Shown: piece after piece, positions 2,220-60,772 of the stretch
Layout of the letters: every line of letters begins with the position of its first letter
Position numbering within the stretch: the stretch's first letter is position 1
Origin: Candidatus Dormiibacterota bacterium
GTDB taxonomy: Bacteria > Chloroflexota > Dormibacteria > Aeolococcales > Aeolococcaceae
NCBI GenBank assembly: GCA_036495095.1
Contig: DASXNK010000196.1
Span: forward strand, 11,472-75,471
DNA: 64,000 nucleotides
Direction of reading: 5' to 3'
Made by a program: the position numbers and the translations under genes
The notes under the pieces: generated by a model
Told to the model about the DNA's origin: nothing
Databases searched by the model: none
The model's input: the letters and a program-made list of their open reading frames with translations, nothing else

Positions 2220-2220
2220 C

Positions 2221-3354: not shown

Positions 3355-3355
3355 G

Positions 3356-3871: not shown

Positions 3872-3880
3872 GGATCAGGA

Positions 3881-5521: not shown

Positions 5522-5533
5522 CCGGGAGCGGGA

Positions 5534-6599: not shown

Positions 6600-6613
6600 G
6601 AGGAGGCACCGAC

Positions 6614-7693: not shown

Positions 7694-8004
7694 GCGACGC
7701 AGACGAGCGGTTCGACTTCGTCGGCATCGTGATGTCGAAGAGCGCCGAGGGCGATGCGGTGGTCTCCGCGCTGCGGAAGAAGGAGGGCGTCCAGGTCATC
7801 GAGCAGCCGTCCTTCTGGGACGTGCGCGCCCGGGACCGGCTCGTCATCGACTACGACGAGGTGAGCGAGGAGCTGGGCTTCGAGATCGACGGCTACGCGA
7901 TCCAGCACGAGATGTCCACCCACTACGGGCGGATGATCGCCACCGACGACGCGCTGATGCTGTTCTCCGATCCGACCGAGGTGATGGAGCACCTCATGGG
8001 ATGA
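7690..8004 (+). CDS. prmD: Monooxygenase coupling/effector protein (MmoB/DmpM family)
   Basis: 104-aa acidic protein (MSDADERFDFVGIVMSKSAEGDAVVSALRKKEGVQVIEQPSFWDV...), the size and composition typical of SDIMO regulatory proteins. ATG overlaps the prmC stop. Confidence 0.7.
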   Translation: MSDADERFDFVGIVMSKSAEGDAVVSALRKKEGVQVIEQPSFWDVRARDRLVIDYDEVSEELGFEIDGYAIQHEMSTHYGRMIATDDALMLFSDPTEVMEHLMG

Positions 8005-10498: not shown

Positions 10499-12133
10499 TT
10501 GTCATCGCCCCCGATGCCGTCCCGGGCGAGTGGCGCGTGTAGGATCGATTCCGACGTGATCGAGGAGTGTCGTCCGCGACCGAGCGATGCAGGGGCCACC
10601 GTGCGCGGAGACCGGCCGCCATCGCAGTTCACCGGGCTCCCGCCGCGCTGGGTGAAGGTGGTGGACCAGACGCGATGCATCGGATGCCACGCCTGCACCA
10701 CCGCCTGCAAGTCGGAGAACGCGGTGCCGCTCTCCGTGACCCGAACCTACGTGAAGAGCGTCGACGTGGGGCTCTTCCCACAGGTCCGGCGCAGCTTCCA
10801 GGTGACCCGATGCAATCAGTGCGACGACGCGCCGTGCGTCGCCGCCTGCCCGACCGCGGCGATGTTCCAACGCGCTGACGGCATCGTCGACTTCGACAAG
10901 TCCGCGTGCATCGGCTGCAAGGCGTGCATGGCCGCGTGTCCGTATGACGCCATCTTCATCAACCCCGAGGATCACTCCGCGGAGAAGTGCAACCTCTGCG
11001 CTCACCGTCTGGACGTCGGCCTGGAGCCGGCCTGCGTGGTGGTGTGTCCCGTCGAGGCCATCCTCGTCGGCGACATCAACGATCCCGTCTCACGGGTGTC
11101 GGAGATCGTGCACCGCGACGCCGTCGCCGTGCGGCGGCCGGAGAAGGGCACCCGGCCCAAGCTCTTCTACAGGGGCGCCCACCAGGCGACCCTCGACCCG
11201 ATCGCGGCCCGCCGCCCCAGCGGGGGCATCTTCGCCTGGAGCGAGCAGAGGGGTCCGGTGGTGTCGGGCCATCCAGGCGGTCACAACTCGTCGGCGTCGG
11301 CGGTTCTGTCGTACGACATCGGGCATGCGCTCCCCTGGGGCTGGCGCGTCAGCCTGTACACCTGGACCAAGGGTGTCGCCGCCGGCGCCTACCTGCTGCC
11401 ACTCCTGCTGGTGTGGAGTGGCCGGCTCGCCGACTCCAGCCCGCTCTGGCGCTGGGCCGCCCCGATCGTGAGCGGGATGTTCCTCGCCATCACCGGGGTG
11501 CTGCTGATCTGGGACCTCAAGCATCCGCGGCGCTTCCACTACATCTTCCTGCGCCCGCAGTGGCGCAGCTGGCTGGTGCGCGGATCGTTCGTGATCGCCG
11601 CCTACAGCCTCGTCCTCGGGCTCGACGCAGTCGCCGGGATCGCGGGCAGCACGGCGATGGAGCGCACGCTCGCGATCGCCGGGGCGCCGCTGGCGGCGAT
11701 GACCGCGATCTACACCGCGTACCTGTTCGCACAGGCGAGGGCTCGAGACCTGTGGCAGAGCCCGCTGCTCCCGCCGCATCTCCTCGTGCAGGCGCTGCTC
11801 GTCGGCGCAGCCGTGCTGCTGCCGGTGGCCGCCATCTGGGACGGGACGGCGGTGACCCCGCTGAGCTGGGTGCTCGCCGGCACCGCGGTCCTCCATCTGC
11901 TGCTCGTGGGCGGCGAGACGACGCTGAGCCACGGCACCGCCCACGCTCACCTCGCCGTCCACGAGATGACCCGGGGCCGCCAGGCGCGCTTCTTCTGGAG
12001 CGGGGTCGGTCTCATCGCCATCGCCCTGCTGGCGCCGGTCCTCGGCGTCGCCGCCGTCCCCTTCGCGGCGCTCGGGCTGCTCGCCCACGAGCACGCATTC
12101 GTCGAGGCCGGGCAGTCGGTTCCGCTCGCGTGA
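10499..12133 (+). CDS. Fused 4Fe-4S ferredoxin subunit (DmsB/NrfC/PsrB-like, four Cys clusters) and NrfD/PsrC-like polytopic membrane anchor
   Basis: N-terminal half carries four CxxCxxCxxxCP-type clusters (CIGCHACTTACK, CNQCDDAPCVAACP, CIGCKACMAACP, CNLCAHRLDVGLEPACVVVCP). C-terminal half has about 8 TM helices. Start could instead be the GTG at 10553 or 10603. Confidence 0.7.
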   Translation: MSSPPMPSRASGACRIDSDVIEECRPRPSDAGATVRGDRPPSQFTGLPPRWVKVVDQTRCIGCHACTTACKSENAVPLSVTRTYVKSVDVGLFPQVRRSFQVTRCNQCDDAPCVAACPTAAMFQRADGIVDFDKSACIGCKACMAACPYDAIFINPEDHSAEKCNLCAHRLDVGLEPACVVVCPVEAILVGDINDPVSRVSEIVHRDAVAVRRPEKGTRPKLFYRGAHQATLDPIAARRPSGGIFAWSEQRGPVVSGHPGGHNSSASAVLSYDIGHALPWGWRVSLYTWTKGVAAGAYLLPLLLVWSGRLADSSPLWRWAAPIVSGMFLAITGVLLIWDLKHPRRFHYIFLRPQWRSWLVRGSFVIAAYSLVLGLDAVAGIAGSTAMERTLAIAGAPLAAMTAIYTAYLFAQARARDLWQSPLLPPHLLVQALLVGAAVLLPVAAIWDGTAVTPLSWVLAGTAVLHLLLVGGETTLSHGTAHAHLAVHEMTRGRQARFFWSGVGLIAIALLAPVLGVAAVPFAALGLLAHEHAFVEAGQSVPLA

Positions 12134-12134
12134 G

Positions 12135-15077: not shown

Positions 15078-15078
15078 C

Positions 15079-15933
15079 GTGGAGCTGGTGAGGGCGCTGG
15101 CGACGCTGGTGGAGCCGCCCTCGGCGGATCGCCGCGCACTCGAGCATGCGCTCGGCCTGGCCGCGCCGCCCTCTGCCGAGGAGCACACCGACCTCTTCGT
15201 CCTGCAGCTGCCGCCCTACGCCTCGATCTACCTCGGCGAGGAGGGGATGATCGGAGGCGACGCACGCGACCGCGTCGCCGGGTTCTGGCGGGCGCTCCGT
15301 CTGCTCCCCCCCGCCGAGCCCGACCACCTCACGGCGCTCCTCGGCCTCTACGCCACCGTGGGCGAGCTCGCCGAGACCGAGACCGAGCCGGCGCGGCGTG
15401 TCCTCGCGGAGCGCGCGGGCGCGGCGCTCTTCTGGGAGCACCTGGCGAGCTGGCTCCCCGTCTACCTGCTGCGCGTCGGCGAACTCGGCGCCGGGCCCCA
15501 CCGGCGGTGGGCGGCGCTGCTGGGGGCTGTCCTCGCAGCGGATGCGGAGCGGTGGGGACCGCCCGACTCCATCCCGGCGCACCTCCGTGAGAGCACCGCG
15601 CTGGTGGACGAGGACCTGGACCGCGAGCGCATCGTCCGCGCCGTGCTCAGCCCCGTGCGCAGCGGCCTTGTCCTCACCCGCGCCGACCTGGGGCGGGCGG
15701 CGCGCGACCTCGGCCTGGGGCTGCGCCTCGGAGAGCGTGCCTTCGTGGTGAGGACGCTCATCGACCAGGACGCCAGGTCCGTGGTGCGCTGGCTCGCCGG
15801 TGAGGCGCGGCGGCAGGCTGGAGGTCATCGTGGCCTCGCCGCGCCGCTGCAGCCGCTGGTGAGGCTGTGGCGGGAGCGCGCGGAGTCGTCCGCATGCCGG
15901 CTGCTGCGGCTGGTCGGGGACCGCACCGCATGA
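15079..15933 (+). CDS. TorD/DmsD/NarJ-family redox-enzyme maturation chaperone
   Basis: GTG at 15079 directly after the TAG of the catalytic subunit. Motif EEHTDLFVLQLPPYASIYLGEEG matches the TorD family E-x-T-x-LF...PPYES-Y signature. Confidence 0.55.
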   Translation: MELVRALATLVEPPSADRRALEHALGLAAPPSAEEHTDLFVLQLPPYASIYLGEEGMIGGDARDRVAGFWRALRLLPPAEPDHLTALLGLYATVGELAETETEPARRVLAERAGAALFWEHLASWLPVYLLRVGELGAGPHRRWAALLGAVLAADAERWGPPDSIPAHLRESTALVDEDLDRERIVRAVLSPVRSGLVLTRADLGRAARDLGLGLRLGERAFVVRTLIDQDARSVVRWLAGEARRQAGGHRGLAAPLQPLVRLWRERAESSACRLLRLVGDRTA

Positions 15934-27762: not shown

Positions 27763-33684
<5,922 letters not shown>

Positions 33685-33944
33685 GCGCGAACCGGCGTGG
33701 GTGGCGGTGTATTACTCGCCAACAGGAGCGATGTCGCAACTCATGCGGGCGGGCGTCCCATCACGGGGGTGCTCCGTCACCCGAACGTCCTCCGCTGTCA
33801 CCTGTCATGGCTAGGATCAGCGATGTCGGCAGCCACTGACAAAGGCAAACCCTTCGCGAGGAGGGGACGCAAAGCCACGGGTCTCACGCAGACAGCCGGG
33901 TTACCAAGGGTCGCCAAAGGAGGCCGACAGCACGGGGTGCTGCC

Positions 33945-37690: not shown

Positions 37691-39907
37691 GTGCGAATCC
37701 AGCAGGGGGAGGACGTGGACGAGCGTCAGACCGACACCGCGCGGAGCGCCGTCGAGCGACTGCGCTGGGTGGCGATGGCGCTGGCACTGGCCCGCGTCGG
37801 CCTCGCCCAGCCGCCGCCGGTGTCCAGGACCGCCGCGATCGGCACCGTCCTCGCCATGGCGGCGTACAACGCCATCGTGACGGTGGCCCGCCGCCGCGGC
37901 CGGTGGGCCGCACCGCTGGCGCTGACCGCCCTCGTCCTCGACTTCCTCGCCTGCACCGTCTGGGTGCTGCTCTCCGCCGACGACCCGTCGAGCTCCGCCT
38001 TCGCGATCTACATCTTCGTCGCCATCGAGGCCGCGGCGCTCTACCAGATGCGCGGAGCCGCACTGTTCGCGCCCGGGTTCGCCACCGGGTTCGCGCTGCT
38101 GACCTGGGCCCGGCACCACTACTTCGGCTTCCCCCTCGACAGCGGCAGCCTGGTGTTCCGATCCGGGATCGTCCTGCTGGTCGGCGTCGCCGTCGGCGCC
38201 ATCGCCACCCAGAGCCAGCGGCGGCGCTTCGAGCTGGATCGCCAGGCGGAGGCGCTGCGCGCCTCCGAGCAGCGCTTCCGCACCATCGTCGACACCACCT
38301 CCATCGGCGTCAGCGTCGCCGACGCGCAGGGGCGGCTGATCAGCGCCAACCCCGCCTACCAGGAGCTCGCCGGCTACACCGAGGCCGAGCTGACGACGAT
38401 GCGGATCATCGACTTCACCCATCCCGACGACGCCGGCGCGGACATGCGGCTCGCCCAGGAGGTGGCCAGCGGGCGGCGCAGCCACGGGCAGGTGGAGAAG
38501 CGGTGGATCCGCAAGAACGGAGAGGTGCGCTGGGTGCGCGTCAACGCCTCCCACCTTCCCGCCGCCGGCGGCGCGCCGGGACGGGTGGTCGCCATCGTCG
38601 AGGACATCAGCGAGCGCAGGCGGGCGGAGCGCGAGCTGGCCGAGAGCGCGGGGCGCCTGGCGGCGATCGCCGCCACCGACGTCCTCACCGGCCTCCCCAA
38701 CCGCAGGGAGTTCGAGCGCCTGCTGGCCCTCCCGCAGAGCCGGTCCTTCGCCATCCTGGCCATCGATGTCGACAACCTCAAGGTTGTGAACGACGGGTAC
38801 GGCCACGAGGCCGGGGACGCCGCTCTGCGAGCGATCGCCACCGCCCTGCGGATGGCGGTGCGCGACGGAGACGTGGTCGCCCGGAGCGGCGGTGACGAGT
38901 TTTCGGCGCTCCTCCCCGACACCGCCCCCGAGGCGGCGGTCCAGGTCGGGGACCGGTTGCGCCGAGCGATGCACGGCCTCGCGCTGCCCCACGGGCAGGC
39001 GCGGATCAGCATCGGCTGCGCCACCGGCCCGGCGATGGCGGACGCTGCGACCGTCCTCATCGCCGCCGACGAGGCCCTGTACCGGGCCAAGCGGAACGGG
39101 CGTGACCGGCTCGAGGCGGCGCCCGCGGTCAACGAGACCGGCTCGCAGCAGGTGCGCTGGGAGACGCTGGTGCCCAGCCTGCTGCGCGAGGACGGGATGG
39201 TCTCCGTCTTCCAGCCGATCGTCGGCCTTCGCGACGGGCGGGTGATCGGCTACGAGGCCCTGGGCCGTCCCACCGACGGGCCCCACGACATCGGGGTCGA
39301 GGGGCTGTTCGCGGCCGCCGACCGGATCGGCGAGGGCCGCAGCCTCGACTGGGTCTGCCGCCGCGCCGCGCTCCTGGGGTGCCGCGGCCTGCCCGCCTCG
39401 ACCGCGCTCTTCCTCAACGTGGGGGTGTCGGTGCTCCTCGACCCGCTCCATGCCGTCGACCAGATGCTCCTGCTGCTGCGCTGGGCCGGCCGGGAGCCGG
39501 CTCAGGTGGTCCTGGAGATCACCGAGCGGGAGGCGGTTCGCGACCTCGAGCGGCTGCGGGTGGTGATCATGGAGTACCGCAGCCACGGCTTCCGGTTCGC
39601 CCTCGACGACGTGGGCACCGGCCACTCCACCTTCGAGGTCCTCTCGGTCGCGACGCCGGAGTTCATCAAGATCGCCGGCACCCTGACCCGGCACGCCGGC
39701 GAGGTCGGGCCACGGTCGGCGATCAGGGCGCTGGTGGCCTTCGCCGCCTCGAGCGGAGCGCGGGTGATCGCCGAGGAGGTCGAGAACGACACCACCGCCT
39801 CGCTGATGCGGCACCTCGGAGTGGATCTCGCCCAGGGCTTCATGTGGGGGACCCCGGCGGCGGCGTCGACGTGGCCGGCGGAGGGTGACCTCACCGCCCG
39901 CGGATGA
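37691..39907 (+). CDS. Membrane-anchored PAS-GGDEF-EAL c-di-GMP turnover protein (N-terminal ~5-TM sensor domain)
   Basis: TM helices in the first ~190 aa. PAS (EQRFRTIVDTTSIGVSVADAQGRLISANPAYQELAGYT). GGDEF (RSGGDEFSALLP). EAL (QPI...YEALGRP, DDVGTGHSTF, EEVENDTT). C-terminal ~430 aa closely paralogous to the C-terminus of the 27763-33684 protein. Confidence 0.85.
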   Translation: MRIQQGEDVDERQTDTARSAVERLRWVAMALALARVGLAQPPPVSRTAAIGTVLAMAAYNAIVTVARRRGRWAAPLALTALVLDFLACTVWVLLSADDPSSSAFAIYIFVAIEAAALYQMRGAALFAPGFATGFALLTWARHHYFGFPLDSGSLVFRSGIVLLVGVAVGAIATQSQRRRFELDRQAEALRASEQRFRTIVDTTSIGVSVADAQGRLISANPAYQELAGYTEAELTTMRIIDFTHPDDAGADMRLAQEVASGRRSHGQVEKRWIRKNGEVRWVRVNASHLPAAGGAPGRVVAIVEDISERRRAERELAESAGRLAAIAATDVLTGLPNRREFERLLALPQSRSFAILAIDVDNLKVVNDGYGHEAGDAALRAIATALRMAVRDGDVVARSGGDEFSALLPDTAPEAAVQVGDRLRRAMHGLALPHGQARISIGCATGPAMADAATVLIAADEALYRAKRNGRDRLEAAPAVNETGSQQVRWETLVPSLLREDGMVSVFQPIVGLRDGRVIGYEALGRPTDGPHDIGVEGLFAAADRIGEGRSLDWVCRRAALLGCRGLPASTALFLNVGVSVLLDPLHAVDQMLLLLRWAGREPAQVVLEITEREAVRDLERLRVVIMEYRSHGFRFALDDVGTGHSTFEVLSVATPEFIKIAGTLTRHAGEVGPRSAIRALVAFAASSGARVIAEEVENDTTASLMRHLGVDLAQGFMWGTPAAASTWPAEGDLTARG

Positions 39908-43166: not shown

Positions 43167-44543
43167 GTGATCCCACCCCTGCGCTCCCCCGCGGGGGTGT
43201 GGCGGCGGGCGGGAGGCCCGCATACGCTCGGGCGAACCGTGGACGTCATCGCCACCGCGCTCGCCCTCCCGCCCGCGCTCGGCCGCGTCGGGCCGCTGCG
43301 CCGGTCGGTCCACCCGGTCGCCGCGGTGGCCCTGGGGCCGGGCACCTCGCTGCGTGACGGGCGGCTCGAGGTCGGGGTGGCCGCCGCCGAGGCCTGTTTC
43401 GTCAGCCCCGCGCTCGCCGGGGTGCGGATCGGCACCACCAGCCCCGGCGAGAGCGCGCGGATCGTCAAGGTGCTCGACGCGGTCGAGCCGCGCACCAAGG
43501 GTCGAGGCGGCGCCGGGGTGTTCCCCGGGCTGATCGGCCGGGCGCTCCCCCAGGGCCAGGGCGACGTCCACGTGCTCCGTGGCGCCGCCGTGGTCACCGC
43601 CGGCTTCCTGCCCCGCGCCCAGGAGGCGCTGGTCGACATGTCCGGCCCGGCGGCGCCGCTCTCGCCGCTGGCGGCGCTCCACTGCGTCGTGGTCGAGTTC
43701 GAGCCCGCCGCCGGCGCCGCCTGGGAGGCGGTGGCCACCGCGCTGCGGATGGGTGCGCTGCGGCTCGCCGCCCACCTCGCCGAGGTGGGGCTCGACGCGC
43801 CTCCCGCGGCGGTCGAGGAGCTGCCGCCGACCAGCCTGCAGCGCAGCCCCGGCGACGCGCTGCCCCGGGTCGTGGTGGTCACCCGGCTGCAGTGCCAGGG
43901 CGCCTTCAAGGACGTCCTCGTCTATGGGGGCACCATGGCCGGCGCGCTGTCGGTCTGCCTCGACCCCAACGAGCTCGAGGACGGCGCGGTGGTGGGCGCG
44001 CAGTACGGTCACCCCGGGCTGAAGAACCCCACATACCTCTTCCAGAACCACCCGGTGGTGGGCGCGCTGCGGGCGCGGGACGGCATCGACCTCCGGCTGG
44101 CCGGCCTGGTGCTCAGCCCCGAGCCGGTGGAGCAGGCCCGCAAGGAGCTGGTCGCCGCTCACTGCGCCCGGCTCTGCGCCGCCCTCGGCGCCGACGCCGC
44201 GATCGTCACCAAGGAGGGCGCGGGCAACGCCGACGCCGACCTCGCCCTCACCATGGACGGCCTCGAGGAGCTGGGGATCCCCGCCGTCGGCCTCTTCGCG
44301 GAGATGGCCGGGGCGGACGGGAGCGGCCCTCCGCTGGTGGTCGCGCCCGACCGCGCCATCGCCGTGGTGAGCACCGGCAACTACGACCAGCCGCTGCGCC
44401 TGCCCGCCGTCGAGCGCGTCCTCGGCGGCCGCGGGCTGGCGGTCACGGGCGCCGCGGCGGACGCGGCGCTCGAGGTGCCCACCGCGGTGGTGTACGGATC
44501 GCTCAGCCCGCTCGGCTGGGGACGGCTGCGGGCGATGCCATGA
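43167..44543 (+). CDS. grdE: Glycine/sarcosine/betaine reductase component B alpha/beta proprotein-like (GrdE family)
   Basis: 458 aa preceding grdB, with the stop overlapping the grdB ATG. Limited similarity to GrdB typical of the GrdE/PrdA family (…VVVTRLQCQGAFKDVLVYGG…GHPGLKNPTYLFQNHPVVGAL…). Confidence 0.5.
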   Translation: MIPPLRSPAGVWRRAGGPHTLGRTVDVIATALALPPALGRVGPLRRSVHPVAAVALGPGTSLRDGRLEVGVAAAEACFVSPALAGVRIGTTSPGESARIVKVLDAVEPRTKGRGGAGVFPGLIGRALPQGQGDVHVLRGAAVVTAGFLPRAQEALVDMSGPAAPLSPLAALHCVVVEFEPAAGAAWEAVATALRMGALRLAAHLAEVGLDAPPAAVEELPPTSLQRSPGDALPRVVVVTRLQCQGAFKDVLVYGGTMAGALSVCLDPNELEDGAVVGAQYGHPGLKNPTYLFQNHPVVGALRARDGIDLRLAGLVLSPEPVEQARKELVAAHCARLCAALGADAAIVTKEGAGNADADLALTMDGLEELGIPAVGLFAEMAGADGSGPPLVVAPDRAIAVVSTGNYDQPLRLPAVERVLGGRGLAVTGAAADAALEVPTAVVYGSLSPLGWGRLRAMP

Positions 44544-45856
44544 CCATCCGCGCCGTCCACTACCTCAACCAGTTCTTCGCGGGCGTCGGCGGCGAGGAGG
44601 CGGCCGGGTCGCCGCCGGCGCGCCGCGAGGGCGCGGTGGGGCCGGGGCGGCGGCTGCAGACGATGCTCGGTGACGCGGTGTGGATCGAGGCGACCGTGCA
44701 CTGCGGCGACGACCGCGCCGCCTCCGACCCGGAGGCGCCGCGGGCGATCCTCGAGCTCGCCGGCGACACCGACCTGATCATCGCCGGCCCCGCCTTCACC
44801 AGTGGCCGCTACGGCATCGCCTGCGCCCGGGTGGTTGCGGCCGCGGTCGCCGCCGGCGGCCGCGCCGTCGCCTCGATGCACGGCGACAATCCGGGCGCGG
44901 GCGAGGCCGGCGCCGCCCCCGTGGTGCTGAGCCTCGAGACCGCTCGGGGGATGGAGGAGTCGCTGCGCCGTCTCGCCCACGCCGTGGGCGCGATCGCCGC
45001 CGGTGACGATCCGTCCTCCGTCGACCATGTGCTCGTGCGCGCGGTGCGGAGCAACCGCCTCGCCGACCGCTGCGCCGCCGAGCGTGCCGTGGATCTCCTC
45101 CTGGCGCGGTTGCACGGCGACCGCGCCGCCACGGAGATCGCCATGAGCGGCTTCGGGCGGGTCAGCCCGGCGGCTCCGGTCGCCGATCCCGGCACGGCGG
45201 TGATCGCGCTGCTCACCGAGGGGGCGCTGGTGCCCCACGGCAACCCCGACCGGCTCGAGTCGGCCCGTGCCCGGCGCTGGCTGCGGTACTCGCTGGCGGG
45301 GCGCGCCGGGCTCGCCGCCGGCGAGTTCGAGTCGGTGCACGGCGGGTTCTCGACGGTGCTCGCCAACGCCGACCCCCATCGCATCCTCCCCCTCGACGTC
45401 GCCCGCGAGATGGAGGCCGAGGGCCGCATCGGCCGGCTCCACGACGACTACCTGGTGACCGCGGGCAACGGCACCCACGTCGCCACCGCCACCGGGTTCG
45501 GGGTGGAGTGGGCCGCGGAGCTGCGCCGTGCCAGCGTGCAGGCCGCGATCCTCACCGCGACGTGAGGGACCGGGACGCGTTGCGGGTCAACGCTCGCCAA
45601 GGAGCTGGAGCGCGCCGGCATCCCGACCGCCGTGCTCTGCAACCTCGTCCCGATCGCGCTGAGCGTGGGCGCGCCACGGATCGTGCCCACCCGCGGCATC
45701 CAGTTCCCGTCCGGGGATCCGTCTCTCTCCGCGGCCGAGGAACGGGCCTGGCGCCGCCGTCTCCTGGAGACCGCGCTGCGGGCGGTGGCCACGGCGGTGA
45801 GCGGCCCGACGGTGTTCGACCCCGCGGAGGTCACCGGCGTGGCGGCCGCCGGATGA
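44540..45856 (+). CDS. grdB: Glycine/sarcosine/betaine reductase selenoprotein B (GrdB family); in-frame UGA (45563-45565) decoded as selenocysteine
   Basis: N-terminus MTIRAVHYLNQFFAGVGGEE matches the GrdB family start. The track ORF ends at the TGA at 45565, but the same frame continues 97 codons (GTGTRCGSTLAKELERAGIPTAVLCNLVPIALSVGAPRIVPTRGIQFPSGDP...) with high GC3 to the TGA at 45856. The TSTU-GTCTRCG-type context is as remembered for GrdB Sec sites. Confidence 0.7.
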
Positions 45857-45860
45857 GGGC

Positions 45861-47291
45861 GTGGTGACCACCGGCGCGGCCGTCTCCGCCGCCTGCCAGC
45901 TGCTGGTGCACGCCCCCGGCATGGCCTGCCACGGCAGCAAGCCGGCCCGCGAGCTGCCCGGCGACCCGGAGGTGGCCGCCGCCTTCCGCGCGGCGCTGCG
46001 GTCGTTTCCCGAGGCGGTGGCGTACGCGCCCCACCAGGCCTTCATCGGCAACCTCCATCCCCGCGACCTGCCGCCGCGACCGTGGGTGGGGCACCCGCTC
46101 GAGGGCGCGCGACCCGACGGTCCGGACGGCGGGGTGCTGGACGAGCTCGACCTGCTCGGCGCCATGGCGGCGGTGGACGAGTTCAACCTGGTGATGCTCG
46201 ACCCCGTGGTCGCCTCCCGCGCCGCCGAGCGGCTGGCCCACCGGCCGGCGACCGCCGGCCTGGTGCTCGCCGAGGGCTGCGCCGGCGACGTCGAGGCCGC
46301 CGCCGCCGTCCCCGGGGCCATCCCCCTGCGGCTCGGCTCCACCGAGGAGATCGGCGGCGTGCTCCGCGCCGCCCACGACAGCGACGAGGCGCTGAGCGCG
46401 CCGGTGCTGCTCGAGAACCTGGTCAACAAGGCGACGGCGACGCTCGCGCTCCTCGACCTGCTGCATCGCACCGGCATCGACCCGGGGTCCATCGACTACG
46501 TGATCTCCTGCTCGGAGGAGGCGGTGGGCGACCGCTACCAGCGCGGCGGCGGCAACATGGGCAAGGCCGTCGCCGGTGCGGCCGGCCTCCAGCAGGCGTC
46601 GGGCGTCGACGTCAAGAACTTCTGCGCCGGCCCGCTCTCGGCGCTGGTCATCGCCGGCAGCCTGGTGTCGGCGGGGGTGTTCCGCCGGGTCGCCGTGGTC
46701 GGCGGCGGCTCGCTCCCCAAGCTCGGCATGAAGTTCCAGGGCCACCTGCGCCACGGGCTCCCGGTGCTCGAGGACGTCCTCGGCGCCTGCGCGCTGCTGG
46801 TCGAGGCGGATGCCGCCGGCCTGCCGCGGCTGCGCCTCGACGCGGTGGGACGCCACCGGGTCGGCGCCGGCGCCTCCGGGCCGCAGATCATGGAGGCGCT
46901 CGCGTTCGAGCCCCTCGACCGGGTCGGGCTGCGCTCGATGGACGTCGACGACTACGCCACCGAGCTCCACGATCCCGACGTCACCGAGCCGCAGGGCTCG
47001 GGCAACGTCGCCGACCGCAACTACCGCACCCTCGCCGCGCTCGCGGTGCGCCGCGGCGAGATCGGGCGCGACGGCATCGACGCCTTCGTCACCGGGCGCG
47101 GCATGCCCGGCTTCGCGCCCACCCAGGGACACATCGCCTCGGCGCTCTGCTACCTGCCCCACGCGCTCCGGCGCCTGGGTCCGGAGGGATCGGCCGAACG
47201 GGTCATGCTGCTGGCCAAGGGCAGCCTCTTCCTTGGCAGGATGTCGCAGCTGTCGGACGGGATGAGCGTGCTGCTCACCCGCGGTGGCTGA
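45861..47291 (+). CDS. grdC: Thiolase-fold (KAS-III/FabH-like) protein, probable glycine reductase complex protein C beta subunit (GrdC-like)
   Basis: 476 aa, GTG start. KAS-III-like active-site region NFCAGPLSALVIAGSLVSAGVFRRVAVVGGGSL. Located between grdB and grdA. Confidence 0.45.
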   Translation: MVTTGAAVSAACQLLVHAPGMACHGSKPARELPGDPEVAAAFRAALRSFPEAVAYAPHQAFIGNLHPRDLPPRPWVGHPLEGARPDGPDGGVLDELDLLGAMAAVDEFNLVMLDPVVASRAAERLAHRPATAGLVLAEGCAGDVEAAAAVPGAIPLRLGSTEEIGGVLRAAHDSDEALSAPVLLENLVNKATATLALLDLLHRTGIDPGSIDYVISCSEEAVGDRYQRGGGNMGKAVAGAAGLQQASGVDVKNFCAGPLSALVIAGSLVSAGVFRRVAVVGGGSLPKLGMKFQGHLRHGLPVLEDVLGACALLVEADAAGLPRLRLDAVGRHRVGAGASGPQIMEALAFEPLDRVGLRSMDVDDYATELHDPDVTEPQGSGNVADRNYRTLAALAVRRGEIGRDGIDAFVTGRGMPGFAPTQGHIASALCYLPHALRRLGPEGSAERVMLLAKGSLFLGRMSQLSDGMSVLLTRGG

Positions 47292-47303
47292 CAGGAGGGA
47301 TGC

Positions 47304-47768
47304 ATGTTCGAAGGCAGACAGGTCGTGGTCCTCGGTGAGCGCGACGGCGTCGCCGGGCCCGCCATCATGGCCTGCGTCGAGGCGGCCGGCGGCTCGGTCG
47401 TCTTCGCCGCCAGCGAGTGCTTCGTCTGAACCGCGTCGGGAGCCATGGACCTGCACAACCAGGCGACCATCAAGGAGCTGGCCGAGAAGCACGGCCGTGA
47501 CTCGCTGATGGTCATCCTGGGCTCGCCCGACCCGGAGTCGGCAGGCCTCTCGGCCGCCACCGTGGTCACCGGCGATCCCACCTACGCAGGTCCGCTCTCG
47601 GAGGTCCAGTTGGGCCTCGACGTGTATCACATCCTCGAGGACGAGGTGCGCAGCGCTGTTCCCGCCCAGGTCTGGGAGGAGCAGATCGGCGTCATGGCCG
47701 AGGTGCTCGACGGCCCCGGGCTCACCGAGATGGTGAGCGGGATCCGCGGGTCGCGAACCGGCGCCTGA
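47304..47768 (+). CDS. grdA: Glycine reductase complex selenoprotein A (GrdA); in-frame UGA (47427-47429) decoded as selenocysteine in the C-F-V-U motif
   Basis: ATG at 47304, preceded by CAGGAGGGA. MFEGRQVVVLGERDGVAGPAIMACVEAAGGSVVFAASECFV-[TGA]-TASGAMDLHNQATIKELAEKHG...LSAATVVTGDPTYAGPLSEVQLGLDVYHILE reproduces the canonical GrdA sequence (GDRDG, ECFVU-TA-GAMD, AGDP-AGPL) across the stop codon. The track lists only the post-TGA part (47445-47768). Confidence 0.8.
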
Positions 47769-47813: not shown

Positions 47814-48953
47814 TCAGTGCCGGCCGCCGGCGCGTGCGAGCAGGAGGGCGCCGGCGGTCGCCGGGATCAGGGTCAGGCAGCCGCCCGCGACCAGCGCCGC
47901 GGCGTCGGCCGGGGCGAGCAGGTGGCTGGAGAGCCCGAGGGTCGCGGCGGCCGCCGGCATCCCCAGCTGCGCCGAGGCGGCCAGCCCGGTGGCGATGCGG
48001 TCGCGACCGGCGGCGGCGAGGGCGCCGAGGACGTGGGTGACCACCGCGGCCAGCGCCAGGGCGGCGGCGAGGGCGAGCCGCGACGGCGAGGTGAGCAGCG
48101 CCCGGAGGTCGAGCTCGGCTCCCAGGAGCACGAAGAACATCGGCACGAAGAAGCCGTTGCCCAGGCCGGCGAGCTGGAGGCTGAGCCGGTCCGGCTCGCG
48201 AAGCCGGACCAGGACCATCCCGGCCACGAATCCCGCGACCAGGAGGCTCGCCCCGGTGCGCTCGGCGATCGCCGAGAGCCCGAGCAGGAGCACCATCGAC
48301 AGGCGCAGCTGCAGCGCCCAGTTGCGGGTCCGCGATTGCTCGAAGAGCCGGTGGGAGATGTCGCCGCGGAGGCGGGGGAGGAGCGCCATGAGGGCGGCGC
48401 CGGCGACGACGATGGCGGCGTCGCCGGCGAGCGCCTCGCCGAGTCCCGCCGATCCCGAGAGGGTCAGGGGCATGAGCACCACGGTGACCGAGTCGGCGAT
48501 CGCCACCCAGGCGATGAGGACGGCGACCGCGTCGCCCCCGATCCCGCGCTCCTCGATGATCGGGAATGCCACCGCCGCCGAGCTGCCGGCGATGAGGACG
48601 GCGAGGAGCGTGGCGTGACCGAGGCCGACGCCGCGGTCGACGAGGAGGCCCGCCGGCACCGCGGTGGCGGCGACCACCGCGAAGGCGGCGAGGCCGCGGA
48701 CGAACCCGCGGCGGATCGCCGGCGAGCCGATGTCGACGTGGGCCCCGGCGTTGAGCATCAGCATCGCGAAGCCGAGGGCGCGGAAGACCGGCAGCGGCGC
48801 CGCGCCGGGGTCGACGAGGCGCAGGCCGGTGTGCCCGAGGAATGCGCCGGCGGCGAGCTCGCCGACCACGACGGGGATGAGCCCGCTCCGGCCCGCGGCG
48901 AGCAGGGGGCCGGCCAGCCCGGCGATGACGAGGATGGCGAGCTGGACGAACAT
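47814..48953 (-). CDS. Cation:proton antiporter (CPA2 / Na+/H+ exchanger KefB-like)
   Basis: 379 aa, about 11 TM helices with a Na_H_Exchanger-type pattern (…GELAAGAFLGHTGL…LGFAMLMLNAG…). Confidence 0.7.
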   Translation of the reverse strand: MFVQLAILVIAGLAGPLLAAGRSGLIPVVVGELAAGAFLGHTGLRLVDPGAAPLPVFRALGFAMLMLNAGAHVDIGSPAIRRGFVRGLAAFAVVAATAVPAGLLVDRGVGLGHATLLAVLIAGSSAAVAFPIIEERGIGGDAVAVLIAWVAIADSVTVVLMPLTLSGSAGLGEALAGDAAIVVAGAALMALLPRLRGDISHRLFEQSRTRNWALQLRLSMVLLLGLSAIAERTGASLLVAGFVAGMVLVRLREPDRLSLQLAGLGNGFFVPMFFVLLGAELDLRALLTSPSRLALAAALALAAVVTHVLGALAAAGRDRIATGLAASAQLGMPAAAATLGLSSHLLAPADAAALVAGGCLTLIPATAGALLLARAGGRH

Positions 48954-50844: not shown

Positions 50845-52923
50845 ATGGTTGCAACACGATTCAGACGGGCACGGAGAGCGCGGCGCGTGCTCCCCCTGCT
50901 GTTGGTTCCGGCGCTGCTCGGAGCCGTCGCCCTCGGTGGGACCCGCATCTCGTCGAGCAAGCCCGTCTCCGCGGCGGGTGAGCTCCCGATGGTCCCGCCG
51001 ATCTTCCACCTCAACGACGGGCCGACGTGGTTCGACACCGGCGTGGACGTCTCCGGCACCCACTCCCTGGCGGTGGCGACGCCGGGCACCACGGTGAAGT
51101 TCATCGTGGGACCGCCCGACACCCTCAGCGACCACGATCCCGACAGCGTGATCTGGCCGACCGGCGCACCCGGCATGCCCTTCCACAATGACGGCGGCTT
51201 CATCGGGGAGAAGTCGGTCACGCTGACCACCCCCGGTCTGTATGCGTTCCAATGCACCATTCATCCCTACATGCTCGGCGCGGTGCTGATCGTCGACCCC
51301 GCCGCGGCGGCCGGCGGCACCCTGGTGCCCGACTTCGGGAAGATGCTGAGCGTCCGCGGCGTCGACAAGCCGCTGCCCTCGGCGTCCGACTACATCTACC
51401 GGCTGGTCCGGGTGTTCTTCGTCATCACCAACTCCGAGAACTGGAGGCGGTACTACCCGGACAAGGCGGGGTCGTGGATGCCGCGATACGCGCCGTCCCC
51501 GATCATCGTCCACGACGCCAGCGGGACGCCGAACCTGATTCCCAACCTCGAGACCTTCTTCCATCAGTACTTCCATGAGCCGGTCGCGATTCCCGCGATC
51601 ACCGATGCGCAGCACCCCAAGGTCCCGGGGGTGGGCGAGGTCATGCAGTCCACCCAGATGGAGGAGCTCAACGAGAAGGCCTATCCGGGCACGGTCTCCT
51701 TCATCGACACCAACAGCTGGAAGGTGGTCCGGAAGTTCGGGCTCCCGAGCATCAACAACGGTGGTGGCCTCGACAACCCCCACAACCAGTGGGTGAGCCG
51801 GGACGAGAACACCGTCTACTCGGACGAGTGGTTCTCCAACAAGACCACCGCGTTCGACCGCTTCACCGGCCAGTTCCTCCGCCAGACGGTGGTGGGACTC
51901 TCGCCGGCCCACGTGGTCACCCGCAGCGCCACCGACGAGCTGATCGTCGGCATCAACGGCGGCAACAGCCTCGCCGAGGTCGCGCCCGGCGACAACGGCG
52001 TCATGAAGAACTTCTCGGCGGTCCTCCCCGGAGAGGGCATCGCCCATCCGCACGCCCACTGGCTGAGCCCCGACGGCAACACCGCGGTCGCCCCGAATGC
52101 CAACTTCGACAGCGCTTCGCTGTTCAACCTCAACGCCAACGATCCCAACCTGTCGATCACCAAGCGGACCTTCGTGGGCAGCATCCCGATCGCCACGGCG
52201 ATGAGCTCGACCGCCGACCGCGCCTACTCCGCCGGCCTGATGAGCAACAACATCGTCTGCATCTCGATGGCCGGCCCCGCCTGCCACGACGGCGGCAGGC
52301 TGGTCGACAGCAAGAACATCTCGCTCACCAAGGGCTACGACTACGTCAGCGGGCTGATGAGTGGCACCTCGGGCATCCCGATCGAGCTCCCCCCGCTCAG
52401 CGCGGACTCCGGCAGCAGCGCGATGGGTCCCGGCTTCCTGCCGATCCAGAACGCGGTCAGCCCGGACAACCGGGTGATGCTGGTCGCCAACGCCGTCTCC
52501 GGCACCATCAGCGTCATCGACATCGCCAGGGACGAGGTCGTCAAGGTCCTGCCCTGCGATCCCGGATGCCACGGCGTCAACTGGGGCGCGAAGAAGGGTG
52601 GCGGCTACTACGGCTACGTCACCAGCAAGTTCGCGAACATCACCTCGGTCGTCGACTCCGACCCGGCCGGTGACGGCGACATCTCCAAGGTCGCGGTGGT
52701 CGGCAGGTTCCTGACCGACACCGACTCCGGCACCAAGACCGACGTCAGCCCCAAGAAGCTGCAGGGCCTCCGCGGCCAGTACACCACCGACGGGATGGGT
52801 GGCCAGGGCGTCCTCGGCCTTCCGATCGCCTACAACGGCTGGGTCCAGAGGCTCCCCGACGGGCTGAAGGCCGGCCTCACCTGCCAGCAGCGGGATCCGA
52901 TGAATCCCCGGGCCTGCGGCTGA
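50845..52923 (+). CDS. Secreted two-domain protein: N-terminal type-1 copper cupredoxin domain plus C-terminal YVTN/beta-propeller repeat domain
   Basis: Signal peptide with RRARRARRVLPLLLVPALLGAVALG. Cupredoxin ligands H...C-x2-H-x2-M (FHNDGG ... LYAFQCTIHPYMLG). Propeller repeats (SPDNRVMLVANAVSGTISVIDIARDEVVKVL). Confidence 0.7.
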   Translation: MVATRFRRARRARRVLPLLLVPALLGAVALGGTRISSSKPVSAAGELPMVPPIFHLNDGPTWFDTGVDVSGTHSLAVATPGTTVKFIVGPPDTLSDHDPDSVIWPTGAPGMPFHNDGGFIGEKSVTLTTPGLYAFQCTIHPYMLGAVLIVDPAAAAGGTLVPDFGKMLSVRGVDKPLPSASDYIYRLVRVFFVITNSENWRRYYPDKAGSWMPRYAPSPIIVHDASGTPNLIPNLETFFHQYFHEPVAIPAITDAQHPKVPGVGEVMQSTQMEELNEKAYPGTVSFIDTNSWKVVRKFGLPSINNGGGLDNPHNQWVSRDENTVYSDEWFSNKTTAFDRFTGQFLRQTVVGLSPAHVVTRSATDELIVGINGGNSLAEVAPGDNGVMKNFSAVLPGEGIAHPHAHWLSPDGNTAVAPNANFDSASLFNLNANDPNLSITKRTFVGSIPIATAMSSTADRAYSAGLMSNNIVCISMAGPACHDGGRLVDSKNISLTKGYDYVSGLMSGTSGIPIELPPLSADSGSSAMGPGFLPIQNAVSPDNRVMLVANAVSGTISVIDIARDEVVKVLPCDPGCHGVNWGAKKGGGYYGYVTSKFANITSVVDSDPAGDGDISKVAVVGRFLTDTDSGTKTDVSPKKLQGLRGQYTTDGMGGQGVLGLPIAYNGWVQRLPDGLKAGLTCQQRDPMNPRACG

Positions 52924-58379: not shown

Positions 58380-60719
58380 TCAGCCCGCCTCGCGCTCGGC
58401 GGCGGCGAGCTCCCGGACCCGGCGGGAGCGCTCCTCCTCGGCCGACGCCTCGGCGAGCCCGGCGGGGCGCAGGCGCACCCGCACGTTCTTGTGGTGCGGG
58501 GTGCCGGCGATGGGGTCGCGGTCGTCGCCGGCGGTGAGCACGTTGATGCGCGGTCCGTCGACGATCCGGCCGCCGCGGCCGTCGGGGTACGCCTGCCCGT
58601 AGCCGTGGGGGAGGGTGACCACGCCCGGACGCAGGCTGGGATCGGCCTCGATGCGCGCCAGCAGCCGCCCGGTCGGCGTCGCCACCTCCATCCAACCGCC
58701 GGCCTCGCCACCGAGCCGCTCGATGTCGGCGGGATGGATGCGCAGCGCGCCGTCGGGGTCGCTCCTCCGCCACGCCGGGGTGCGGAAGATCTGGTTGGCG
58801 TTGTGCATGCGTCGCTGCCCGGCGACCAGGGTGAACGGGTGCTCGGGGTCGTCGCCCTCGGCCGCGGGTTCGAGGGCGGCGAGCCACTCGAGGAGCGGGG
58901 CGACGGCGAGGTGCACCCGTCGGTCGGGGTGGCGCAGCATCGACCACACGTCGTCGTGGCGGTGGACCGAGAACACGGTCCCCGAGGGCGACGAGACCAC
59001 CCGGGCGAAGAGCGCCTCGCCGAGCTGCGCGCCCTCACCGACGATGCCCGCGGCGCGCACCGCCTCGGGCTCGCGCGCCGCCAGGGTGTGGCACGCCGGC
59101 CACAGCGGCGCCGCCGCTCCGGCGCCCCCGGGCAGGGTGCGGCCCAGGGTCTCGTAGAGCACCGCCGGCGCCACCGCGGCCCAGCCCGGCTCGGAGCCGA
59201 GCAGCAGGCGCACCCGCTCGGCGAACCCCGCACGGTCGGTGGCGGCGAGGCCGCGCAGCTCGGCGAGCGTGCTCTCCGGGGGGAGCGCCCCCATGGTGCG
59301 GAGCAGGCGGGTGTAGATCTCCGGCTCGGCGAGCGTGCCCGGCAGCGGTTCGAGCACCGGCGGGCGCACGTGGATGGTGTTCGCGGGGAAGTCGAAGGTG
59401 AAGAGCGTGTACTCCCACTTCTCGTACTGCGAGGAGGCGGGCAGCACGTAGTCGGCGAGGGCCGCGGTCTCGGTCATGGCGACGTCGACGACCACCAGCA
59501 GGTCGAGCGCGTCCACCGCCCGCGCGAAGCGTGCGCTGTCGGCCGCGGTGCTGGCCGGGTTCGCGCTGTCGACCCAGAGGGCGCGGACCCGCCGGGGGTG
59601 GTCGGTGAGGATCTCCTCGGGCAGGCGGTTGGGGGGATAGAGACCGGCGATCTGCTCCTGGCCGGTCACCGCGCTCCGCTGGCCGCGCGAGTTCCCCCAC
59701 AGCGGCTGGAGCACGCCGTGGAGGACGTTGGTGCCGGTGCGGCCGAAGTTGCCGGTGAGCAGGAAGAGCAGCTTCTCCAGGTAGGAGTTGAGCGTGGAGT
59801 GGCGGGACTGCTGCAGCCCCAGCTCCACCCGGACGCACATCGACGGGGCGGCGAGGATGAGGTCGACGGCGCGCTCGACGGCATCGATGGGCACCCCGGC
59901 GTGGGCGATCCATGCCTCGACGTCGACGGTGCGGAGCACCGCCGCCACCGCCTCGAAGCCCTCGGTGCGGGCGTCGAGGAACTCGCGGTCCTCGCCGCCG
60001 CGGCCGAGGATCATCGCCAGGATGGCGCCGAGCAGGAAGGCGTCGGTGCCGGGACGGAGCTGGAGGTGGAGGTCGGCCATGTCCGCCGCCTCGGTGCGGC
60101 GGGGGTCGATGACCAGCATCCGCCGCGCCGGGTCGTTGCGGATCTCCTTCAGCGCCAGGCGGGCGTTGGCAAAGCCGTGGGCCAGCCAGGGGTTGCAGCC
60201 GATCACGACCAGGAGGTCGGTGTTCTCGACGTCCTCGCCGGTGTGGCAGGTCTGGGCGCCGAAGAGGTGGCCGTTGACCCAGAAGTCCCCGGTCTTCTCC
60301 TGGGCGAGGGCGTTGTAGTAGTTCGTCGAGCCCATCGCCCGCATCAGCGACACGCCGTAGGCGCCGCCGAGGTGGTTGCCCTGACCGCCGCCGCCGTAGA
60401 AGGCGAAGGCGTCGCCGCCGTGGGCCGCGCGCAACCCGCTCAGCCGCTCGGCGAGGTCGTCGACCGCCTGCTCCCATGACACCGGCTCGAACCCGCCCGC
60501 GGCGGTCCGCCGCAGCGGGGTCTGCAGCCGGTCGGCGTGCTCGCCGTAGAAGTGGAGCCGCTGCGCCTTCTGGCACAGGTAGCCGCGCGACCGGGGATGG
60601 GCCCGGTCGCCCCGCACCCGCGCGATGCGCCCGTCCTCGACGCCCAGCTCCACCCCGCAGTTGACGTAGCAGAGGATGCAGGCGGTCTGCCGCCACTCGA
60701 CACCGGTGGGTTCACTCAT
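58380..60719 (-). CDS. Cytoplasmic molybdopterin oxidoreductase (MopB superfamily; formate-dehydrogenase / assimilatory nitrate-reductase-like monomeric enzyme)
   Basis: Start MSEPTGVEWRQTACILCYVNCGVELGVEDGRIARVRGDRAHPRSRGYLCQKAQ with 4Fe-4S motif C-x2-C-x3-C...C. 779 aa, MopB segments throughout. No signal peptide. Confidence 0.75.
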   Translation of the reverse strand: MSEPTGVEWRQTACILCYVNCGVELGVEDGRIARVRGDRAHPRSRGYLCQKAQRLHFYGEHADRLQTPLRRTAAGGFEPVSWEQAVDDLAERLSGLRAAHGGDAFAFYGGGGQGNHLGGAYGVSLMRAMGSTNYYNALAQEKTGDFWVNGHLFGAQTCHTGEDVENTDLLVVIGCNPWLAHGFANARLALKEIRNDPARRMLVIDPRRTEAADMADLHLQLRPGTDAFLLGAILAMILGRGGEDREFLDARTEGFEAVAAVLRTVDVEAWIAHAGVPIDAVERAVDLILAAPSMCVRVELGLQQSRHSTLNSYLEKLLFLLTGNFGRTGTNVLHGVLQPLWGNSRGQRSAVTGQEQIAGLYPPNRLPEEILTDHPRRVRALWVDSANPASTAADSARFARAVDALDLLVVVDVAMTETAALADYVLPASSQYEKWEYTLFTFDFPANTIHVRPPVLEPLPGTLAEPEIYTRLLRTMGALPPESTLAELRGLAATDRAGFAERVRLLLGSEPGWAAVAPAVLYETLGRTLPGGAGAAAPLWPACHTLAAREPEAVRAAGIVGEGAQLGEALFARVVSSPSGTVFSVHRHDDVWSMLRHPDRRVHLAVAPLLEWLAALEPAAEGDDPEHPFTLVAGQRRMHNANQIFRTPAWRRSDPDGALRIHPADIERLGGEAGGWMEVATPTGRLLARIEADPSLRPGVVTLPHGYGQAYPDGRGGRIVDGPRINVLTAGDDRDPIAGTPHHKNVRVRLRPAGLAEASAEEERSRRVRELAAAEREAG

Positions 60720-60772
60720 AGGACGCACTGTAGTCCAGTGAGTTCTGTTACGCAACCCTATATGATGACCCC

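Follow-up and report, generated by a model that had tools for sequence, protein, structure and literature searches.

A four-gene operon of the glycine reductase (Grd) family was found at 43239-47768 (+) of the DNA analysed here, a stretch of 64,000 nucleotides (the window) from contig DASXNK010000196.1 of a Candidatus Dormiibacterota genome (GCA_036495095.1). The genes grdE-like, grdB, grdC and grdA are tightly packed, and both grdB and grdA contain an in-frame TGA that is predicted to encode selenocysteine (Sec). With a probability of about 0.65, the operon encodes a functional Sec-dependent reductase from a deep-branching clade of the Grd family, which has a reduced architecture and would work without a Schiff base and without an adjacent GrdD. 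Grd and Prd selenoenzymes are textbook markers of anaerobic Stickland fermentation. What appears to be new, as far as the sequence comparisons reach, is a coherent selenium-dependent branch without adjacent GrdD and without the pyruvoyl site, found in the genomes of at least 80 species from soil phyla that are typically aerobic, and in hundreds of metagenome clusters. Full-text literature searches, with subscription journals outside their coverage, returned no Grd genes in Actinomycetota, Dormibacteria or Gemmatimonadota, no GrdD-less systems and no such set of motifs. A motif-filtered GrdB survey reported GrdBE in only 107 species from natural ecosystems (PMC9751293); its filter, based on canonical GrdB motifs, would exclude the clade.

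Operon layout and selenocysteine codons

The features of the operon and its flank are as follows, in coordinates of the whole window:

43239..44543 (+): grdE-like, 434 aa; alpha/beta-type subunit of the substrate-specific protein B; Pfam Gly_reductase, 6.9e-91
44540..45856 (+): grdB-family selenoprotein B gene, 438 codons; Pfam GRDB, 3e-97; TIGR01918, 382.5 bits
45563..45565 (+): in-frame TGA of grdB, predicted Sec codon; motif A-T-U-G-T-G-T-R-C; 96 codons after the TGA
45577..45593 (+): predicted selenocysteine insertion sequence (SECIS) hairpin of grdB, GCGUUG-CGGGU-CAACGC, starting 11 nt past the UGA
45861..47291 (+): grdC, 476 aa; KAS-III/thiolase-fold protein C subunit; Pfam ACP_syn_III and C-terminal DUF5940
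47304..47768 (+): grdA, selenoprotein A, 154 codons; Pfam GRDA, 6.1e-59; AGGAGG ribosome-binding site ahead
47427..47429 (+): in-frame TGA of grdA, predicted Sec codon; redox motif C-F-V-U
47450..47463 (+): candidate SECIS hairpin of grdA, CCUG-CACAAC-CAGG; candidate status only
47814-48953 (-): Na+/H+ exchanger family protein, flank of the operon

The first-pass annotation had placed a four-gene Grd operon here and had argued that its genes are missed when open reading frames (ORFs) are called by stop codons. Both points hold: all four genes were found on the + strand with Pfam and NCBIfam family matches, and the two in-frame TGAs split grdB and grdA. The layout also stands, whereas two details change, since the start is probably 43239 instead of 43167 and 96 instead of 97 grdB codons were counted after the TGA. 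Position 43167 is the earliest possible start of grdE-like; the start was placed at 43239 because a GTG there gives a 434-aa protein, the same length as the gene call on a Joint Genome Institute (JGI) contig with an identical GrdB N-terminal protein. The ATG of grdB overlaps the grdE-like stop as ATGA, and the GC content of the operon region is 72-77%. The flanking gene, earlier labelled a CPA2 antiporter, matches the Na+/H+ exchanger family, and no grdD, trxA, trxB or grdX was found beside the operon, in agreement with the earlier description. An apparent thioredoxin match at 47201-47275 was rejected as an artefact of over-extended ORFs overlapping the end of grdC.

Both in-frame UGAs are, judged by alignment and conservation, Sec codons. 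The reference Grd sequences were taken from annotated records (the Acetoanaerobium noterae GrdB scores 945.7 bits on the glycine-reductase equivalog TIGR01917). In the alignments, the grdB TGA falls in the Sec column of A. noterae GrdB, Peptoclostridium acidaminophilum GrdF and Enterococcus gilvus GrdH, and the grdA TGA falls in the Sec column of A. noterae and E. gilvus GrdA. The motifs line up as TATUGTGTRCG in the window versus TSTUGTCTRCG in the reference for GrdB, and ECFVUTASGAMD versus ECFVUTAAGAMD for GrdA; the C-F-V-U of the latter is the C-x-x-U active site that had been recognised from the sequence. The segments downstream of the TGAs belong to the same proteins, as had been supposed: the read-through products match their profiles end to end (TIGR01918 positions 1-431 of 431), and the coding frame, traced by GC content at third codon positions (GC3), is continuous across both TGAs.

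Conservation was followed in a set of 80 related loci from species-representative genomes, with flanks of up to 10 kb on each side. The TGA is kept in 79/79 related grdB genes and in 61/61 cleanly aligned grdA genes, and TGC or TGT occurs in none. Compared with four close relatives, the ratio of nonsynonymous to synonymous substitution rates (dN/dS) past the TGA is 0.06-0.15 for grdB and 0.21-0.25 for grdA, equal to or below that of the upstream parts, and the sequence past each TGA appears to be under purifying selection. Across three phyla, the cassette has no frameshifts or extra stops except for one break in grdA of the closest relative (locus L004). At ~13001-13003 of that locus, the alignment is broken between post-TGA residues 36 and 37 and the pieces lie in different frames; either a frameshift or a faulty assembly of that metagenome-assembled genome (MAG) may be the cause. 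A genome-wide reassignment of TGA is excluded because TGA is the ordinary stop of 46 of the 52 predicted window genes, all four grd genes among them.

Gene callers and public databases give the products as pieces of 341 aa (GrdB) and 41/108 aa (GrdA). Because gene callers split the genes at the TGAs, MAG annotations show the system in fragments, where it is easy to overlook, and public pipelines already attach family-level names, such as "betaine reductase", to parts of the cassette. The whole GrdB family gave 166 matches at E<=1e-30 among 1.84 billion 50%-identity representatives. Nearly all full GrdB-family matches in this library end at ~345-350 residues, which is the Sec codon, and proven selenoproteins of the GrdB family are cut short in the same way. 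In four longer proteins of 774-798 aa (P0142, P0156, P0182 and P0225), the GrdB match is confined to the C-terminal ~345 residues; they look like GrdE-GrdB fusions that stop at the Sec codon.

The grdB UGA is followed by a predicted SECIS hairpin that is conserved across the whole family. RNAalifold on 73 sequences yields a helix at 45577-45593 with six U-G wobbles, one compensatory C-G and zero broken pairs. The grdB codons +4 to +9 (ACG CGU UGC GGG UCA ACG) show a third-position entropy of 0-0.10 bit, compared with 1.3-1.8 bits for the flanking four-fold codons, and they include CGU and UCA, which are disfavoured at this GC content. The hairpin occurs as a single copy within the window. The low-GC Firmicute grdB/grdF/grdH genes carry the hairpin U-CGUUGC-GGN-GCAACG-A at the same codons; the outer pair is U-A in these references, whereas it is G-C in the window. 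A SECIS element was looked for after each TGA: the one in grdB is supported by the conserved hairpin and the frozen synonymous sites, whereas that in grdA is a weak, non-covarying candidate and is not demonstrated. Synonymous variation in grdA is lowered at codons +5 to +8 and +11. Two other grdA hairpins, GGCU/AGCC right past the UGA and CGGG-N9-CCUG, were rejected, because their pairs are explained by constraints on the amino acids or are confined to one subclade. The Rfam scan of the operon and its upstream region, even at E<=5, gave no SECIS family and no riboswitch (glycine or other), and the sole match at the operon was a chance ribozyme match.

Genes of the Sec machinery were found near the cassette in several relatives. 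A tRNA-Sec was detected by ARAGORN within ~2 kb of the cassette in L012, L053 and L069, and the L012 tRNA-Sec scores 68 bits in Rfam (cutoff 47). The genes selD/selA/selB lie directly upstream of grdE in L012 and L069, and in L040, L062, L047 and L053 the cassette has selA, selB or both as neighbours. Because selD, tRNA-Sec, selA and selB adjoin the cassette in relatives, Grd is suggested to be a principal user of the Sec machinery in carriers with adjoining sel genes. In the Solirubrobacteraceae MAGs, selD, tRNA-Sec, selA and selB are arranged divergently just upstream of grdE (L069 4584-8570; L012 1-2417); in other relatives, among them L053 (13744-15688), L040, L062 and L047, the cassette is flanked by selA/selB or by selB plus tRNA-Sec.

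Family placement and missing hallmarks

By profile scores and motifs, the system is placed as a Grd family member that fails the defining tests of the glycine, sarcosine, betaine, fluoroacetate and proline reductases individually. Two subunits pass their NCBIfam models, namely GrdC (reduct_C_beta, NF040746; 507.9 bits, cutoff 450) and GrdA (reduct_selen_A, NF040748; 201.1 bits, cutoff 130). For selenoprotein B, the only model passed was the family-level TIGR01918, selenoprotein B homologue (382.5 bits, cutoff 65.45), and the scores on the equivalog models were 358.5 for GrdB (TIGR01917, cutoff 602.2), 376.5 for GrdF (cutoff 800) and 332.5 for GrdH (cutoff 775). The best NCBIfam match of the GrdE-like protein is GrdG with 188.7 bits (cutoff 780), and the FarE model gives 125.7 bits (cutoff 675). 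The PrdB (64.1 bits, cutoff 300) and PrdA (42.4 bits, cutoff 700) models gave partial, weak matches.

Sequence identities, for the window protein against the references and for the references among themselves, are as follows:

GrdB: window 37-42%; references among themselves 47-60%
GrdE: window 30-34%; references among themselves 39-63%
GrdC: window 37-39%; references among themselves 58%
GrdA: window 47-51%; references among themselves 72%

The characterised proteins resemble each other more than any of the four window proteins resembles them. The placement relative to GrdB, GrdF and GrdH, a point raised in the first-pass annotation, was addressed with a neighbour-joining (NJ) tree (no bootstrap), in which the whole clade branches outside all three. 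The GrdB-like protein retains the YxNx6GGE and CGD motifs. The published GrdB motif fails at two spots, where GPxF[NF]AGRYG is replaced by GPAFTSGRYG and AHGGxD by VHGGFS, and the GrdF motifs IHGGYDR and TTGTGT are not present in the aligned window protein. No relative of the GrdE-like or the GrdB protein with a solved structure turned up in a PDB sequence search.

GrdE and GrdG are proproteins cleaved at Asn-Cys, and Cys242 of GrdE becomes the pyruvoyl group (PMC9908766). The self-cleavage site is SGN-C-V-S/A-x-C in GrdE/GrdG, whereas it is SGQ-[Y/F]-G-H-P-[A/G] in the clade and SGQ-Y-GHPG in the window. The equivalents of Cys242 and Cys246 occur in 0/69 clade members, with Y, F or H at the first position in 69/69, and no substitute conserved Cys was found in the GrdE-like subunit among these 69. 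The GrdE-like protein had been described as a proprotein; because the self-cleavage site is missing, with both cysteines absent, it does not appear to be one. GrdI and FarE have both lost the processing site as well and are not proproteins, since for their substrates a Schiff base is either impossible or unnecessary (PMC10838667).

The selenoprotein B motif also differs, being A-T-U-G-T-G-T-R-C in the clade versus the canonical S-T-U-G-T-C-T-R-C, with a G-T-U-G variant in one subclade (L078-80). The Ser of STUG is replaced by Ala or Gly and the first Cys of CxxC by Gly; this Ser has been proposed as a second carbonyl precursor (PMC10838667). The earlier guess that the system acts on a different substrate gains support from the missing pyruvoyl Cys pair and from the substrate-specific NCBIfam scores, which are far below their cutoffs.

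GrdD, TrxB and GrdX gave no tblastn match (E<=0.01; two GrdD queries) in the window or in the 80 loci with their ±10 kb flanks. The grdD gene directly follows grdC in both canonical operons used as controls, and never in the 80 loci. The canonical GrdD reportedly carries an acetyl thioester that is phosphorolysed to acetyl phosphate, a result ascribed to Kohlstock et al. in 2001. The FCAGP cysteine of GrdC, which is the nucleophile, is invariant in 66/66 clade members. Compared with two canonical GrdC sequences, the clade GrdC is without the ~28-residue C-terminal tail, and a canonical Cys is lost (EEAC to EEAV/I). A clade-specific Cys in ALCYLPH (ASALCYLPH in the window, ~47150-47180) is found in 92% of members, where canonical GrdC has Pro; that it is relevant to function without GrdD would be purely speculative.

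Between grdC and grdA, most relatives have a ~110-aa thioredoxin whose CxPC site resembles that of the Grd-specific thioredoxins; it is missing from the window and from the loci nearest to it. The set grdE-like/grdB/grdC/(trx)/grdA forms a self-contained cassette that is kept in Dormibacteria-type Chloroflexota, in many Actinomycetota and in Gemmatimonadales. Two long-contig contexts around it consist of housekeeping genes. Small recurrent clusters in the flanks looked by eye (no Pfam scan) like an ABC-type ATPase and permease, or like mere synteny of near relatives, and were set aside. A group II intron domain (RF00029, 52.8 bits, cutoff 40) lies at 7837-7914 (-) of locus L054, a Pseudonocardiaceae MAG, ~400 nt downstream of grdA.

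Host, distribution and gene neighbourhood

The nucleotide matches place the host within Chloroflexota, as a bacterium of the Dormibacteria type. A 1.83-Mb MAG contig labelled "uncultured Chloroflexia bacterium" (CAWJVN010000007.1) shares 93.5% identity with the window over 12.6 kb and stays syntenic beyond that; the loci that rank next carry the labels Chloroflexota and Candidatus Dormiibacterota. The JGI contig, which comes from soil, has the same upstream genes as the window in addition to the identical GrdB N-terminal protein. The suggested actinobacterial lineage was not borne out for the window, as its closest matches are the MAGs labelled Chloroflexota or Dormibacteria; most other carriers are Actinomycetota.

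The same cassette, with 51-66% GrdB identity, was found in MAGs of Solirubrobacterales, Thermoleophilaceae, Acidimicrobiia, Pseudonocardiales, Mycobacteriales, Egibacteraceae, Gaiellaceae and Gemmatimonadales. No fewer than 80 genomes at species level and well over 100 metagenome clusters (90% identity) carry it, and the rarity attributed to it at first sight does not hold. A figure of 493 confirmed stretches was not used as the clade size, because the search pattern VHYLNQFF also matches canonical GrdB. No cultured carrier was found among the best 120 GrdC homologues, in which every organism name is that of a MAG and the other entries are metagenome contigs. In the NJ tree (no bootstrap), the Dormibacteria and Gemmatimonadales sequences are nested among actinobacterial groups, and because of this nesting, lateral transfer into Dormibacteria and Gemmatimonadales is tentatively suggested.

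The aerobic-type monooxygenase and Mce genes mentioned in the first-pass annotation were recovered at 1-8004 (+). Three Mce/MlaD genes precede a soluble di-iron monooxygenase with four components, namely two Phenol_Hydrox subunits, a Fer2-FAD-NAD reductase and an MmoB/DmpM coupling protein; an Nramp gene (8001-9230) comes right after it. Because a soluble di-iron monooxygenase needs O2, these genes point to an O2-using lifestyle of the host. Two molybdopterin oxidoreductase systems are also present, neither with an in-frame TGA. One (10556-15933, +) combines a 980-aa catalytic subunit and a NarJ-like chaperone with a 525-aa membrane subunit that is an unusual 4Fe-4S/NrfD fusion; the other (58380-60728, -) is a stand-alone 782-aa protein with an N-terminal Fe4S4 motif.

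Other elements of the window include a c-di-GMP-I-GGC riboswitch at 33835-33909 (+) (RF03167, 73.5 bits, cutoff 59). It is located between a 1940-aa Ser/Thr-kinase/AAA/PAS/GGDEF/EAL protein (27862-33684), which it closely follows, and a small ORF whose end is at 34631. Another GGDEF-EAL protein, at 37691-39907, was judged by its translation alone (no Pfam scan). Moreover, a segment of ~1.4 kb (~51048-52426) is without a counterpart in the otherwise syntenic L004 contig. It lies inside a 678-aa ORF (50887-52923) of lower GC with no Pfam match, and could be either an insertion in the window or a deletion in L004.

Reaction scheme, rival explanations and known systems

The reaction scheme of the canonical Grd enzymes, which is said to go back to Andreesen and co-workers, can be adapted to the clade. 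An unprocessed GrdE-like/GrdB heteromer would bind an alpha-substituted acetate (X-CH2-COO-). Because both candidate carbonyl precursors are missing, the substituent would leave without Schiff-base activation; it might be a quaternary ammonium or other onium group, such as in glycine betaine, or another good leaving group. The GrdB selenolate would attack C2 and displace the leaving group, giving Se-carboxymethylated GrdB, and the carboxymethyl group would move to the Sec of GrdA. GrdC would then form an acetyl thioester on its FCAGP Cys, with GrdA converted to the oxidised Se-S form. Without GrdD, the acetyl group might go from GrdC to CoA, phosphate or water; alternatively, an unlinked PlsX-like partner might take the GrdD role. 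KAS-III enzymes exchange acetyl groups with CoA. Thioredoxin would re-reduce GrdA, by the dedicated CxPC protein in most relatives and by a housekeeping one in the window genome. Glycine and sarcosine seem less likely as substrates on these grounds.

If active, the system would bring to the turnover of carbon and nitrogen in soil both a reductive route of C-N or C-X cleavage and a need for selenium. Such a system would also be a natural experiment on the purpose of GrdD and of the pyruvoyl group, and would help explain why these lineages keep Sec decoding. A bolder version of the proposal, tentative and rather doubtful at present, is an unrecognised Grd-type class in aerobic soil bacteria. This class would cleave the C-heteroatom bond of onium or activated acetates without a carbonyl cofactor (for example, glycine betaine to trimethylamine), pass the GrdC acetyl straight to CoA and not to acetyl phosphate, and be the main reason why Actinomycetota, Dormibacteria and Gemmatimonadales keep the Sec machinery.

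Several observations weigh against a Sec-dependent reductase that works without Schiff base and adjacent GrdD. The Sec machinery (selA, selB, selD, tRNA-Sec) is absent from the 64-kb window. The candidate grdA hairpin has 4 bp with 90% of cells paired over 31 sequences and no covariation; it is missing from canonical grdA, and the RNAalifold consensus is weak. Single-sequence minimum free energy (MFE) folding of 63-88 nt past each TGA was no better than shuffles (z -0.95 and +0.21); it also missed the conserved grdB hairpin, and because of the high GC content this folding is uninformative, so that comparative analysis was used instead. The catalytic role of the GrdE pyruvoyl group is itself debated (PMC9908766). 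Clustering of all flanking ORFs in the 80 loci revealed nothing conserved beyond the cassette and no transporter or pathway gene, and a BCCT transporter was found in none of these loci. The remaining points concern the substrate and grdD. The raw identity of the GrdB-like protein is 42% to GrdB/GrdF and 37% to GrdH, slightly nearer the former; the GrdH model fits it no better than do those for GrdB and GrdF; TxGNxTxV, a GrdB-type motif given by Nobu et al., is kept, which leaves glycine as a possible substrate; and the absence of grdD extends to ±10 kb of each locus.

On a rival view, the operon encodes an ordinary glycine reductase, acting for instance as the final step in a reductive glycine pathway or in glycine catabolism, with GrdD, thioredoxin reductase and acetate kinase encoded elsewhere and acetyl phosphate as the product, as in clostridia. 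GrdA and GrdC above their equivalog cutoffs, together with YxNx6GGE, CGD and the glycine-type TxGNxTxV, fit this view, as do the marginally closer identity and the reach of the grdD search. However, it is unlikely in the light of the self-processing cysteines that are gone in all 69 GrdE-like proteins and of the STUG Ser, the other proposed carbonyl precursor, that is Ala or Gly. The GrdB motif is broken (VHGGFS, GPAFTSGRYG), the TIGR01917 score of 358.5 falls short of the cutoff of 602.2, which a true GrdB exceeds with 945.7, and grdC is never followed by the grdD that adjoins it in the two control operons.

The two TGAs themselves might be read in other ways. If they were true stops, the operon would be a decaying or truncated relic, with 341-aa GrdB and 41-aa GrdA fragments and leftover similarity downstream. 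The products listed in the databases (341 and 41/108 aa) and the window free of Sec genes would agree with that; however, post-TGA dN/dS values of 0.06-0.25, as low as or below those of the upstream parts, the reading frames that are intact across three phyla bar the L004 break, the frozen synonymous sites at the SECIS hairpin, the Sec genes adjoining the cassette in relatives and the same truncation in proven selenoproteins of the family make a relic very improbable. It is equally hard to believe that a suppressor tRNA or a reassigned code puts one of the standard amino acids Cys, Trp and Gly at the UGAs. Sequence data alone leave some room for such decoding; however, TGA terminates 46/52 window genes including the grd genes, both recoded codons coincide exactly with Sec positions in characterised selenoproteins, the grdB UGA has a SelB-type hairpin behind it with the canonical spacing of 11 nt, and tRNA-Sec, selA, selB and selD flank the cassette in relatives.

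The D-proline reductase PrdA/PrdB shares distant B-type/E-type homology and a selenoprotein with the clade, whereas the Prd system has no GrdA/GrdC partners. The glycine reductase of Peptostreptococcales (Acetoanaerobium sticklandii/noterae, P. acidaminophilum, C. difficile) is encoded by GrdX-TrxB-TrxA-GrdE-GrdA-GrdB-GrdC-GrdD. It has in common with the clade the GrdE/GrdB/GrdC/GrdA homologues, the Sec columns, the grdB SECIS hairpin and the GrdC FCAGP Cys, and a Grd-type CxPC thioredoxin occurs in its operons and in most clade members. The window subunits are only 30-51% identical to those of glycine reductase; the clade is without nearby grdD/trxB/grdX, without the Asn-Cys pyruvoyl site and without the GrdC tail, and it has the B motif A-T-U-G-T-G-T-R-C. 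The gene order is E-B-C-(trx)-A in the clade versus E-A-B-C-D in glycine reductase, and the hosts are high-GC soil bacteria with O2-dependent enzymes, in contrast to Stickland fermenters.

The betaine reductase GrdH/GrdI is known from P. acidaminophilum and from an E. gilvus plasmid operon (trxB-trx-grdA-grdC-grdD-grdI-grdH). As in the clade, its large non-seleno subunit is not a proprotein, and the pyruvoyl-Cys position is Phe in E. gilvus GrdI and Tyr/Phe in the clade; by this analogy, the substrate of the clade need not form a Schiff base. However, GrdH retains S-T-U-G and CxxC, the identity is 37% to GrdH and 34% to GrdI, and the E. gilvus operon has a BCCT transporter and grdD, whereas the 80 clade loci have neither. 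The fluoroacetate reductase FarB/FarE from Cloacibacillus porcorum (Synergistota) provides a precedent, with an E-type subunit that lacks both processing cysteines, a selenoprotein without the protective CxxC motif, and an alpha-substituted acetate with a good leaving group as the substrate (PMC10838667). FarB has lost the CxxC motif, whereas the clade has lost only its first Cys. The Far operon also contains a radical-SAM gene and an antiporter, and borrows GrdA/GrdC/GrdD from the canonical system of its host, whereas the clade carries GrdA and GrdC inside its own cassette.

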